Assembly: GCA_000002445.1 (NCBI GenBank)
Contig: CH464491.1
Span: 3,200,001 to 3,264,000 of the forward strand
Source of the DNA: Trypanosoma brucei
Lineage: Eukaryota
Direction of reading: 5' to 3'
DNA: 64,000 nt
Shown in pieces: positions 24,001 through 30,000 of the stretch. Position numbers: made by a program. Position 1 is the stretch's first letter, and each line of letters opens with the position of its first letter.

Positions 24001-27000
24001 CGTCTTGCAGTTTGGCTGGGCTAATGCACCGCCGATTTCCATTCAGTGAGAAAGAGATTGCGTATATTTTCCGGAAAGTTATTACTGCTGTGAAAAAGTT
24101 ACATGAAATGGGTATCATCCACCGTGATGTCAAGGCTGACAATGTGCTCATTAATAGGGATGGCAGCGTCCAGCTTGGGGACTTCGGTTTGTGCGCCTTT
24201 GAGGGATGCGGCACGCGTGCCTTAACTCCCAGTCTTATTAACCTTAACTATCGCCCGCCTGAGATGTTACTCGGTGCCGTCGCATATAACGCAAAGGTTG
24301 ATATATGGTCTATTGGCTGCTTTCTAAGCCAAATGTTTCTGCGTGTGCCGCCATTTGCCTGCGTTCGGCCGAAAGCAGAATTCGACGGAGCGGGCGCTGG
24401 CAACGCAAAGGTGGACCCGCATCCCAAAGAGCCGCAGCAAAAACAGAAGTTAAAACAGCAGGGGTATAGGGTGCAAGCGGAAACAGAACTGGCGCAACTA
24501 TCTCTTATAACAGAGGTGTTGGGCCCGCTTGGCGGTGACCTTGATGAAGCTTTCCCACCGGCGCAGTGTCGAAACGTGTCGCTATTACGTGAGGTACGCG
24601 CATCTCTAACTAGCTGTAACTCACAATCAGCGTTAAGGGCGTCTATGGCTTCTCTTTTTGAACCAAGCCATCTTTACTCTCAGTACAGGGGCTTCCGCTC
24701 GTGGTTCATCGCCACTGCTGAGCGCCGCCGTCGTTCCCCAACTTATCCAGCGCCGTCGCCGGAGTGTCTCGACGTGCTCACTGCAATATTTCAGCTGGAT
24801 CCGCGGAAACGGCCGACGGCGGCCCAATTGCTGGAAATGCCTTTCTTTGACCTTAGCCGCGCGGTGTCGTCTCCCGCCCGACGGTCGTATGCTGCTTATA
24901 CTTACGCTGAAGTTGAGGTAGAGAAGGCGGAGCTGTTAATAAGAGAAGAAATGGCTGAGAAATTACAGAGGTACGAGGGCAGTCACCTTTTGCCTTATCC
25001 AAGCGCTGCGTAAAAATAGGTTGTGGGTGATGGAAGAGGTTGTGATGCAGGAAACATGAATAAAAGGAGGACTCAGGAATGTGTCAGTGAGGAAGATTTT
25101 AAGAGTTGTAGTGGAAGGGAGGGGGTCACTGCAGCTCAGTGAAATGGAGGTGAACCGTTGAGGAGTTGTGGGTCGTTATGGTGCTCCTCCTGGTGGGACC
25201 ACCAGACTCTAGAGTTGGCGAAAGCGGGATATTGCGATCGCCCAGGGAGGATTGACGGATCTACATGTTTTAAAAATGTGCATGGCTGGTCTATACCTAA
25301 GTGGGAGGTGACGAGGTGTGTGTATGTGTATGTGTGGTCATCACGCCGCAGAACTCAGTCATAACCGCAATACGTAAAGTGGGATAAAATGGGGTAAATC
25401 ACCGCAAATGTGATTGTTTCTTCTGTACTCTTTCCCCTCATATCCTATGTCGATACTTCCCCCCCCCCCCAAGTAGTCTGTACTTCCGTTGAATATGATG
25501 TACCGATGGATACAAGCTCACACATCCCCCTCATCACTCAACCCCTTTTTTTCTCTCCACGTTTTTTTTCATCTTCCTTTGGCCGCCGTCTCCGGGCGGT
25601 CCTGCCCCTTGAGGACGGCGTATTTTGTTCTCTTATTGTGCTGCACTGAGCCATTCTGTGTTCTGGGATTGGTGCCGAAATGAAGGAAAGAGTAAAAGAA
25701 AATATCCATCTTTTCTCCACAGTAACAGTCAAATGTGTTCCCCTCATCATCTCCTTCCCGATCTCTTGTCGTCATCTTCCTTGAATTTCGTCATTTATGA
25801 TCCCTCCACATGCACTCTCCCTTTCTTTTCTATGTGTGAGTGTGTACGAGGAGGGGAAAGAGGGGGAAAGAAAAGGAAAGAAGACGCCTGAGCCTTATCT
25901 TGTATGCTATGTGCCTCAGTATTTGCACTTTGGCGCGGAAACTTGGAAGCGCGCGAAATTCTCTTCATGTGCAGCTGGATTAATTTTTGTTTTCTCCAGC
26001 GCTCCGAGTTTTCTCCTTTTACTCTATTTTTTTTTATTGTTCGCCTGCATTCCCCCCCTTCCATTACGTGTTTTCCAGGCTCTTGCCTCATACCTTTCTT
26101 TTTCCGTTTGCTAAACTTCTTGAGTCTAAACGTCGCCACCCAGCATTGTACTGTTTATACCGTTTCCTCCTTTTTGCTTCTCCCTTTTTTTAAAATCTTC
26201 TTTCAGAACGTGTGTGTACATCCAAAGAGATTCGGTAGAGGATAAAAGCCAAAAAGGGTGGCGGCAAATAAAGTGTCGTGAACGTTGCCTTCCTTTATTC
26301 TCCACTTGGAATCTGATCGTTGTTCGGATTTATACGCACACGGACGGAGGCACAAACAGGGTTGCTTTCCGGATAATTTGAAGGAACTTTCAGGGTGTGG
26401 TGGAAGAGGCTGCAGTTGCGGAAAGGAAAGGAAAAAAAGAAGAGGTGGGGAAGGAAGAAATAGTAAAGCATATCAAGGGGAATTAAATAAGTTCATAAAT
26501 AATTCGGCGAGTAGACCAAAGGCTAAACTTGTCTAACAAGGGAACGGAGGTGTCGCACGTGCCAGTTGCATTGTTGGGGACTAGGAATAGGGCACACCTC
26601 TTTGCTCTTTTCCCCCTCCCCCTTTTGTCTAAAATGATGCGGTTCACTAGGGATGGAGCCGTGGGCAACATGCAATCAGACAAAAGTCGGAGGGTTCTCT
26701 CGTGCATTCTTTTTCTCTGCTTTCTCGGCTTGGGTGCTCTCATTGCATTTGCGACGATACCGTTTTCCGTACTTGACGGTCGAAGTGACAAGAAGCAGAG
26801 CGATTTGGTGCGCATAGCTGTGGATGAAACCAATTGGTGGTCTGAAAATATGCGCCTTCGAGTCATCGAGTCTGCGGCTGCAGCGCGAGCTATTGAGGGA
26901 TTTGTTATTGGTGAAATTGATAATATGCCCCCTTGGAAGGGTGGGTTAGAGCAGCGTGCACTTGGATGGTCGTTTGAGCGGTTTCCTTACGTGGCAGCGG

Positions 27001-30000
27001 CGATGTTTCGTAATGTACGGAACAACACAGGCACGGTTGTCATGCTTGCCCCTGGTGGTGTCGTCTCTCAAACGTTTCCAAACACCGAGTCCGTTTTAGA
27101 GTATGATTTTTTCGAATCTGGAAATGGAATCGGGGTCGCAGCTGCGGAGAGGATGGCGGAAAGAGGAGGTTTTGAATTGTTCGGTCCCGTCCTCCGTCGT
27201 GTTCCCGTCCCTAACGCAAGTTGGCAGTTATTGATTTGCAGCGCTATACACAACGCAACGAGCGGTGACCCAGTATCCGTCGCCAACTTTTGGGGATTTA
27301 CCGTTGTTGTGAAGGATTTGATGGGGTTGCTGGATGTCGGGGCGTTTGAAGAACGAATGAAGGAGCTTGAGATGAATTACCTTGTCTATATAACTGATGA
27401 CGCAAACAACACCATCCCTGTCACCACCTCACTGCGTAATAACTTAACAACTGCCGAGATTGAGAAATTTACCGGAGGTTGCTACAATCGACCAGTGCTA
27501 CCGCAGGTCGGGCATTTGTTTATGTGTGTGCGCAGTGCCGCGATGATTGAAAAGCACTCGAGGTCGACGGTGGTACTACTTGTGGTGGGTTGTGTGTTCA
27601 TCTCCCTCATTGCATTTGTGTGTGGTGTAATGGTGGTGCTGCCGTGCTTGCGCGAGTTCGACAGTCGTATGAATGCCCCTAAAACTGTGCCGTTTGTGAT
27701 GACTATTGTTGGCCCTTGCAATGCTGAGCGTTTGTTTGAGTTAGCCCCATCGGCTGCGTTTCCTGTATTGGAGAAGTATGCAAAGTTGCAGAAAGCAGTT
27801 ATCACAAACAATCACGGTTATGTTGGCTTGCAAGTACACCCTTACACCGCAACATTCGTCACTCGCGATGTGGACACAGCCATAGAAACTTGTTTTCAAC
27901 TGCTAAAAGGGGTACAGAAGAAGCATTTGGATGAACCACTCAAGAAATGGTTGGGTGCCGACGGCGAACTGTCCATCGCCGCCGCTATACATTGGTGTGC
28001 AGATGCGTATATACGCGTAGAGACAGTGAACGGCAGCATTCGATACGAGGGAAATGATGTTAAGTATTGCGAGCGCATGTGGATGTTTGTCCCACCGAAT
28101 AAGGTGACGATAAGTCAGCATGCCAAGGACAATATCCGCAGTCCTTCGACAGAGGTGTGCACCACTCAAATTGGCTCTGTTTTCTTTCGTGGTGTGAAGG
28201 AGAAACAAGCACTCTTTAATGTGACGCGTGTCAATGGGGATGAGTTGCAAACCTTCAAGGACTCAACAGTGCCTCCGTCGAGGATATTTGGCAGCGCAGA
28301 GATTGAGCAAGCAGAATATGAGGAAACACCAAATGCAGGGTTCATACCCGTTAGCATTCAAACGAATACACGAGGTACCGGTGGCTGTGAGATGCCACCC
28401 AGTTCTCCTAACCTTCATAAGAAAAAATTTAAGGATCGAGCATCACATTACTGCTGCTCCCGTGATCAGGGGGAGCATGGGACCCATCGAAATCCCCTCG
28501 CTTTCCCTGGTGGTGGTGATGAGGTTCTGCCGCGTACTGTGGCGTTCGCATCCGACCCCGACAATGGCAGGGTTGGCGCCGAAGACGTTGAAATTGGATT
28601 GAAGTTCATCTACCCTCGGGATCACCACGTAAATCCGCACATACCGACTGGGAGTCGTTTCCGTCTGGCAAATGATGACGTCACTCATGGTTATGCTGCG
28701 GCCAGTAGTGACAAAAACGTGTCAAAGGCAACGAGCTCTGGGAATAGCCCAGTTACTGATTTTCACACGATGGATGAGTTGGCGTGTGTCAGCGTGACCA
28801 GTAAGGGGGACTTCATTACTGAAGCGCTCATGCGTCCGTGGATACCGAATGCACTGAACACGCACTTTCGTGTGTTGTTTGAGCAATATTCCCTTTTCCT
28901 CGATTTTAGTTATGAGTCGGTTCGTACCGTTATTTTTTATTTCTACATAGCATATAAAGAACTTTTAAAGCCCCTTGCGGGGCCGGAGCGAACGAATTTG
29001 TTTAATCGCTTTGTTATCGCATTTGGCGTGCCACCGCAGAGCGTCTTGGAGGCTCTTGCCGTTCGTTGTGCGTTGCGCCACATTCAGCAGCTGGAAGGCA
29101 TACGTACAATGTTATGGCACTCGGAGCAAGAGCGCCTACAGCCGTCTCAATGCGCAAATGCAGAGGACACAAAACGAGAGGGGGTTTCACATGTAGTGGA
29201 GGGGCGAATATAAGGTGGCAGATGCGCACGCAATGAGCGTCTTTGTCTCTCTTGGGTTTGTCTTTGTTTGAAACATTGTAATCTTCTTATCTGTTGTTCC
29301 CCGGGCCCTTCTGAGAGGGGTGTTTATGTGAATCGGTATGATTTCTTTTAGTCTGCGGTTACTTCACCGCGTCCACCATTATATATTTTGTTATTATTTT
29401 TTTTTAAACGCAGGTCGCGTACAGCTCCTTCTATTTCCTTCACTCTTCACCAATAAGTCGTTGTGCCATATTTTCTGTGATTGAAAACTTTCAGAAAAAC
29501 ACTTCGGAAGTGAAAGTTCCGCAGTATAGTATTGTTGAAGTGGGATCTGCCGTCCCCTTCCCCCCTTTTTTCGTTTCCTTCTTCTGCCGGTTTCTTTTGA
29601 TCGTCCCATCACTTTCCCTTCGTCTTCTCTGGTTTTATTTTTATATTTTTATGAGGAGGAGGGGTGGAAATTTCGTTACCTCCCATCCTTTAAGGTGCAA
29701 GGGAGGGAAGGCCGAATGGTGCGTTGTCAGTCGTCTCACCCGAAGGCGATCCTCGTTCAGTTGCATGTTGTTGCACCATCACTGCAGTATGATTACCAAA
29801 AGGGGCCGCCACCACCAGAGGAGGCGTGTGAATTAGATGTGGAGTTGTTGTGCAATGATATTAGTAACAAAATGCGGTTACTTGGCGGAATGGCCATTGG
29901 ACTGCCCAAAGAAGGTTTGGTGGTTGAAGGTTCGCATCGTGAAGAAAGTGGCAACGGTGGGTTGTACAACATTGTGGTGAGGCTTCAACACGCCTCAAAC

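Follow-up and report, generated by a model that had tools for sequence, protein, structure and literature searches.

What kind of protein is encoded at positions 26634 to 29213 of a 64,000-nucleotide stretch of Trypanosoma brucei (assembly GCA_000002445.1, contig CH464491.1, positions 3,200,001 to 3,264,000; the whole stretch is referred to here as the window), and can a receptor that carries a cyclase-like domain signal without making cyclic AMP (cAMP)? An initial annotation, made from the sequence, described the product as a homologue of the receptor-type adenylate cyclases (RACs) with a catalytically dead cyclase domain and a truncated ectodomain. The open reading frame (ORF) is real and intact from ATG to TAA, and the 859-amino-acid (aa) protein is present with 100% identity in public assemblies; its best named relative is TCIL3000_11_12950 of Trypanosoma congolense, at 47% identity. 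We conclude, with a probability of about 0.9, that it is a receptor with a CHASE sensor domain and a dead cyclase homology domain (CHD). It is predicted to have a type III topology, in the order cytosolic N terminus, transmembrane segment 1 (TM1), CHASE domain, second transmembrane segment (TM2), dead CHD, disordered linker, and helical module (Table 1).

The cyclase homology escapes searches that start from the single sequence. A Pfam hmmscan of the protein, a check that had been proposed with the initial annotation, returned no families even at an E value of ≤10, with the gathering score for Guanylate_cyc (PF00211) not reached, and no PF00211 match was found in the trypanosomatid orthologues scanned. 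Likewise, phmmer against all PDB chains gave no hits, and BLASTP of aa 334 to 540 against the GRESAG4.1 catalytic domain (1FX2; the reference sequence was verified as residues 4 to 217 of that entry) gave an E value of only 8.7. All three single-sequence routes failed, and the homology is visible with profiles only. Alignment of 41 domains of the dead family with GRESAG4.1 and four canonical relatives, using hhalign, scores 99.5% over 189 columns (E value, 1.9e-22). The AlphaFold2 (AF2) model, for which the input was a 47-sequence family alignment, has predicted local distance difference test (pLDDT) values above 90 across aa 20 to 540 and 725 to 835; the best Foldseek match is T. brucei GRESAG4.3 (1fx4; E value, 3.1e-9), and the region has the CHD fold. 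The domain had been called unmistakable, and its homology is indeed firm by profile and by fold, but the description does not hold for Pfam, phmmer, or BLASTP searches with one sequence. Its location had been given as about 27670 to 28140; the domain ends farther downstream, at about 28238. An APK motif precedes the first strand, as had been noted. The two outcomes on which the initial annotation could have fallen were not seen: Asp is absent from both metal-binding positions, and the similarity to cyclase domains is significant. We note that, since the protein has no PF00211 match, surveys that gather trypanosomatid cyclases through this Pfam entry will have missed the pseudo-cyclase family.

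The loss of catalytic residues is extensive. We read the positions of the six-residue catalytic set from the family alignment and from the hhalign alignment, with GRESAG4.1 as the reference. The first metal-binding Asp (motif FTD in GRESAG4.1) is replaced by G360, the adenine-specifying Lys (EVK) by L399, the second metal-binding Asp (VGD) by P403, the adenine-specifying Asp (GYD) by R470, and the transition-state Asn (TPN) by K477, and the transition-state Arg (AAR) alone is retained, as R481; five of the six residues are replaced. Class III cyclases work by a two-metal mechanism that needs both Asp residues. A domain with these substitutions would be unable to bind the two catalytic metals or to stabilize the transition state, and, judged from its residues, it is probably catalytically dead. 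The replacement of both metal-binding Asp residues and of the transition-state Asn by Lys had been recognized in the initial annotation, but the pairing at the first site was three residues off, with FTDI opposite I358-V359-G360-P361 and not opposite MTIV, and the element reported as IHxG reads IHWC.

These substitutions are shared by all of the named trypanosomatid orthologues, a conservation that the initial annotation had asked to see examined. In every one of them, metal site 1 is Gly and metal site 2 is Pro, and none has an acidic residue at or beside either position; across the 51 aligned sequences, site 1 is Gly in 37 and site 2 is Pro in 29. Could the protein nonetheless be an active cyclase that uses noncanonical residues? 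R481 is kept, and three metagenomic family members (P0051, P0056, and P0059) have states that lie between the two conditions, with Glu in the first metal position and Asp in the second but with the Lys, Asn, and Arg lost. Against this stand the missing acidic residues at both metal positions of the trypanosomatid orthologues, in which the Asn, Lys, and adenine-specifying Asp are lost too; we regard activity of this kind as highly improbable, and the active-enzyme reading was rejected on the residue evidence.

The replacement residues are themselves conserved, including G360, P403, H453-W454-C455, and Y471-E472-G473, which suggests a maintained pocket, not decay. It is conceivable, if rather improbable, that this pocket holds ATP or a different purine nucleotide, without turning it over, as an intracellular allosteric input. 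There is a solved precedent among the fold matches, the Pseudomonas aeruginosa adenylate cyclase-like ATP-binding protein 6yii; on the other side, the phosphate-binding loop FTDIESST of GRESAG4.1 has become IVGPCNAE and both of the adenine-specifying residues are gone. Such nucleotide sensing and the reading of the protein as a noncatalytic CHASE receptor are mutually compatible.

The region ahead of the CHD is not that of a RAC. The topology proposed in the initial annotation, with a transmembrane segment, an ectodomain, a second transmembrane segment, the cyclase-like domain, and a tail, is upheld by hydropathy, and the AF2 model agrees, with a continuous helix at aa 15 to 94 and a helix at aa 310 to 338. 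The sequence ahead of TM1 has a net charge of +3, placing basic residues on the cytosolic side, and five of the eight N-x-S/T sequons of the protein fall in the 266-aa region between the two segments; these features together support the assigned orientation. The ectodomain had been interpreted as a truncated RAC ectodomain, and this is not borne out: the ~266 aa form a CHASE domain by fold and by hhalign, which aligns them with those of CHASE-cyclase relatives at 99.8%. The protein has no match to the CHASE family PF03924, for which the gathering score is 25 bits, and the T. cruzi and Angomonas orthologues score 15.9 and 18 bits, below that threshold, with intact relatives at 29 to 38 bits. 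Membership is given by homology to Pfam-positive CHASE domains together with the CHASE fold and the position between two transmembrane segments; the ectodomain is a CHASE domain, with a predicted role in ligand binding. RACs have a large ectodomain of the periplasmic-binding-protein type and a single transmembrane segment, an architecture that this two-segment protein does not share, and the RAC fragments that we found carry PF25493 and PF00211, neither of which is present here.

From which lineage, then, does the protein come? An exhaustive profile search with an alignment of the T. brucei and T. congolense proteins returned a bounded family of 70 representatives, with no flood of cyclases. 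Four of these (P0054, P0055, P0065, and P0069) match GRESAG4.1 with E values of ~1e-33 at the place equivalent to aa 345 to 530 of the T. brucei protein and retain the full D-K-D-D-N-R set; the three that were scanned individually (P0054, P0055, and P0069) exceed the CHASE and the Guanylate_cyc thresholds of Pfam. Two of the four, P0054 and P0065, are transcripts of Euglena longa, and the other two, P0055 and P0069, come from environmental assemblies. The two-sequence profile of the T. brucei and T. congolense proteins aligns colinearly with P0055 over aa 26 to 532 of the T. brucei protein, through the CHASE domain, TM2, and the CHD (E value, 1.6e-12), and the domain order is that of TM-CHASE-TM-cyclase receptors. 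A hidden Markov model (HMM) of the dead members only scores 75 to 80 bits against the CHASE-cyclases and 40 to 52 bits against true trypanosomatid RACs, with which the dead domain shares only 14 to 16% identity. On the proposed closeness of the domain to the RACs, the two kinds of comparison point in different directions: among solved structures, the catalytic domains of T. brucei GRESAG4 proteins are nearest, and profiles score the CHASE-cyclases higher. The closer profile match to CHASE-cyclases and the colinear alignment with P0055 together indicate a trypanosomatid survivor of the CHASE-cyclase lineage, and the idea of a truncated RAC paralogue gives way to that of a separate TM-CHASE-TM-cyclase lineage. 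On these alignments the gene descends from active TM-CHASE-TM-cyclases, of which intact forms survive in E. longa and in the environmental assemblies.

Orthologues with the dead catalytic set are present in T. congolense, T. vivax, T. melophagium, T. cruzi, Leishmania, Leptomonas, Angomonas, and Phytomonas. The lineage probably turned pseudoenzyme before the trypanosomatids diversified. The metagenomic proteins P0051, P0056, and P0059, all of which have the C-terminal module, are possible intermediates between enzyme and pseudoenzyme, judging by their residues. There is a single family member per Trypanosoma species in the representative search and a single copy in the window. Leptomonas, Phytomonas, and Angomonas have pairs of paralogues, one long and one short, that are adjacent or nearly so, as judged by accession numbers (P0011/P0015, ABL78_4647/4646; P0013/P0016, CCW62207/62208; and P0010/P0017, CAD2220513/2220515, respectively). 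When the long members of the family (1.6- to 2.0-kb proteins) were scanned with Pfam, no second, intact cyclase domain turned up.

This conservation also bears on whether the gene is a decaying pseudogene or a functionless ORF, for which loss of catalytic residues is all that speaks. The 859-codon frame is intact in a syntenic polycistronic context, full-length orthologues occur throughout the Trypanosomatidae, and conservation follows the domain structure, with 68 to 80% identity in domains versus 21% in the linker. The domain-wise identities to T. congolense (Table 1) imply that the dead CHD and the C-terminal module are under purifying selection. We give the pseudogene reading a negligible chance and rejected it on conservation.

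Behind the CHD, the initial annotation saw a unique tail of about 350 aa. It consists instead of ~180 disordered, poorly conserved residues and a helical module of ~115 aa that is present family-wide and is better conserved than any other part of the protein. The module motif, in the form LLxPLxxxERxNIxxRLxxAFGVP, resembles a conserved motif in the post-catalytic tails of RACs, LLxTFxxxQRxKLLxPxCERWxVxxP (RAC tails P0094 to P0135). The alignment of the module with these tails by hhalign is weak (P value of 0.0047 over 29 columns); an HMM of the RAC tails matches P0054 with an E value of 1.7e-4, and an HMM of the module matches the Euglena cyclase P0153 with an E value of 6.7e-5, both in tiny databases. 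These reciprocal matches are weak, yet they fall at equivalent positions. Kinship of the module with RAC tails is a suggestive lead, not an established relationship; if true, the module would be an ancestral euglenozoan post-cyclase element.

Table 1. Features of the CHASE-domain pseudo-cyclase receptor gene (window coordinates; identity is to the T. congolense protein)
Feature	aa	Coordinates	Strand	Identity	Evidence or remarks
Complete ORF (CHASE-domain pseudo-cyclase receptor)	859 + stop	26634..29213	+		ATG 26634, TAA 29211-29213; ORF list, translation
TM1 / signal anchor	~21-44	26694..26765	+		Kyte-Doolittle maximum 2.71; short basic cytosolic N terminus before TM1
CHASE sensor domain, extracellular or lumenal	~45-310	26766..27563	+	39%	Long stalk helix, five N-x-S/T sequons
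TM2	~311-338	27564..27647	+	75%	Kyte-Doolittle maximum 2.97
Degenerate class III CHD, probably catalytically dead	~345-535	27666..28238	+	68%	APK motif aa 348-350; hexad G360, L399, P403, R470, K477, R481
Disordered linker, S/G/P-rich	~544-724	28263..28805	+	21%	pLDDT <50; indels relative to T. congolense
Five-helix C-terminal module	~725-838	28806..29147	+	80%	Near-invariant motif PLAxxERxNIxxRLxxAFGVP...LAVRC

How might such a receptor work? CHASE receptors and class III cyclases are obligate dimers, and the protein would presumably act as a dimer as well. Only about 7 to 10 residues separate TM2 from the strand that opens the cyclase-like domain. A ligand on the CHASE domain may displace TM2, which, being coupled almost directly to the pseudo-cyclase, would alter the conformation of the pseudo-cyclase dimer together with the C-terminal module. 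Partner proteins bound to the receptor, and possibly also a nucleotide in the degenerate pocket, would then read out the change, and no cAMP would be made. Dimerization, ligand gating, and noncatalytic output are what we infer by analogy with these relatives, and we put this full mechanistic reading, that of a ligand-gated, noncatalytic receptor or scaffold, at roughly 0.6.

Several points weigh against this reading. We found no experimental data on the protein, whether on localization, expression, knockdown, or binding. Inactivity was judged from residues. Of the four intact cyclases, three (P0054, P0055, and P0065) were part of the AF2 alignment, and the fold evidence is partly dependent on the sequence link. 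A fold search with the C-terminal module gave no informative structural relative, and the output step of the mechanism is a guess for that reason. Finally, the probable gene identifier, Tb927.11.12320 (derived below), is absent from the literature texts and supplements that we searched.

A different output, along the lines of the RAC regulator raised in the initial annotation, would be reached if the dead domain paired head to tail with the catalytic domain of an ESAG4 or GRESAG4 cyclase and crippled both composite sites, with the consequence that local cAMP output is lowered or is gated by the CHASE ligand. A RAC heterodimer with a domain that retains the Arg alone would have no intact site, and the nearest solved structures of the domain are those of T. 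brucei RACs. Trypanosome adenylate cyclases form homo- and heterodimers, and ESAG4 that has been engineered to be dead has a dominant-negative effect (PMC9481589). We nevertheless consider such pairing unlikely. The dead domain is distant from those of the RACs and closer to the CHASE-cyclases, as described above, the strong conservation of its C-terminal module hints at an output of its own, and no evidence in this analysis links the protein to the RACs. The gene identifier was also not found in the supplements searched of the paper on ESAG4 and CARP3 pull-downs, a weak negative since the identifier is inferred from gene order.

To return to the noncatalytic CHASE receptor, adenine derivatives are ligands of CHASE domains elsewhere, and trypanosomatid parasites are purine auxotrophs. 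It is tentatively possible that the protein defines a cAMP-independent receptor pathway running through the pseudo-cyclase dimer and the lineage-specific C-terminal module, which might sense small molecules and perhaps gate RACs by heterodimerization.

The locus itself has the single-strand layout of a trypanosomatid polycistron, with all window ORFs of at least 250 aa on the plus strand. The C-terminal tagging primer for Tb927.11.12220 (VTC4) from TrypTag matches exactly at window positions 2488 to 2527, at the end of a VTC-domain ORF, a match that assigns the window to chromosome 11 of T. brucei. Immediately upstream of the pseudo-cyclase gene lies a 769-aa ORF for a CDK-like kinase, which is probably CRK12, reported in the literature as Tb927.11.12310; from this gene order, the pseudo-cyclase gene is probably Tb927.11.12320. 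Other neighbors in the window, besides this kinase, include an HslU-like AAA protein, an MCM subunit, an MFS transporter, a RING-H2 protein, and a photolyase-like protein, and neighboring ORFs lie at 149 to 2530, 3361 to 4851, and 22704 to 25013. At the 5′ end of the pseudo-cyclase gene, a polypyrimidine tract at 26598 to 26628 adjoins the ATG, and the first AG beyond it is within the ORF, at 26649 to 26650; trans-splicing there would shift the start to Met13 (26670). A better-placed tract and AG are at about 26160 to 26206. The placement of these signals makes the first 12 residues of the protein uncertain. Elsewhere in the window, a 1,162-aa ORF on the plus strand (39203 to 42691) has no Pfam family at an E value of ≤0.001, and about 6 kb at ~49600 to 55400 is poor in ORFs, with GC content down to 0.33 to 0.40, a strongly positive GC skew, long runs of T, and numerous short simple repeats; its length is unusual for intergenic sequence in this polycistron.

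The initial annotation did not recall any characterization of such a protein, and full-text literature searches found no paper on it; database names are generic, either "hypothetical protein" or an automatic "CHASE domain-containing protein." Neither the inferred identifier nor the tagging-primer sequence was found in the TrypTag, CARP3, surface-proteome, and APEX2 supplements that we searched, a weak result given that the identifier is inferred and that some of these files are truncated. As far as we could find, a conserved CHASE receptor with a dead CHD has not been described before, in trypanosomatids or elsewhere. CHASE-linked cyclases, dead CHDs, and trypanosome RACs each belong to a known kind, and no new principle is involved; the receptor is real, conserved, and open to experiment.

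Signaling by cAMP is unusual in trypanosomes, which have dozens of receptor cyclases without known ligands and a PKA that is cAMP independent (PMC9481589, PMC6440977). The ligands and effectors of this signaling system are largely unknown, and the protein is a candidate parasite receptor with a recognizable small-molecule sensor domain, a relative of the cyclases without being one. It offers a tractable entry point, with knockout and tagging being routine and the CHASE domain amenable to ligand screening. The intact Euglena relatives and the dead trypanosomatid form also make up a natural active/inactive pair for studying the change from cyclase to pseudoenzyme.

Among known systems, the euglenozoan TM-CHASE-TM-cyclases (P0054/P0065 and P0055/P0069) have the same full-length architecture and a recognizable copy of the C-terminal module, but they meet both Pfam thresholds and have all six catalytic residues, whereas the T. 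brucei protein meets neither threshold and keeps one residue. The RACs of the ESAG4/GRESAG4 type (1FX2/1FX4) are active, multicopy proteins with one transmembrane segment and a large ectodomain, in contrast to the two segments, CHASE domain, and dead catalytic set seen here. ACG of Dictyostelium discoideum is a eukaryotic TM-sensor-TM-class III cyclase with a CHASE-type extracellular region that serves as an intramolecular sensor, and it is an active cyclase stimulated by osmolarity; likened by description only, it shares the TM-sensor-TM-cyclase plan with the T. brucei protein and differs in being active. AHK4/CRE1 (3T4J) and PcrK of Xanthomonas (6K62) have histidine kinase outputs and cytokinin ligands, whereas the output domain here is cyclase-like. 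The ATP-binding protein 6YII of P. aeruginosa is a soluble bacterial transcription-regulator module, and the dominant-negative ESAG4 is an artificial mutant; unlike the T. brucei receptor, neither has a CHASE sensor attached.

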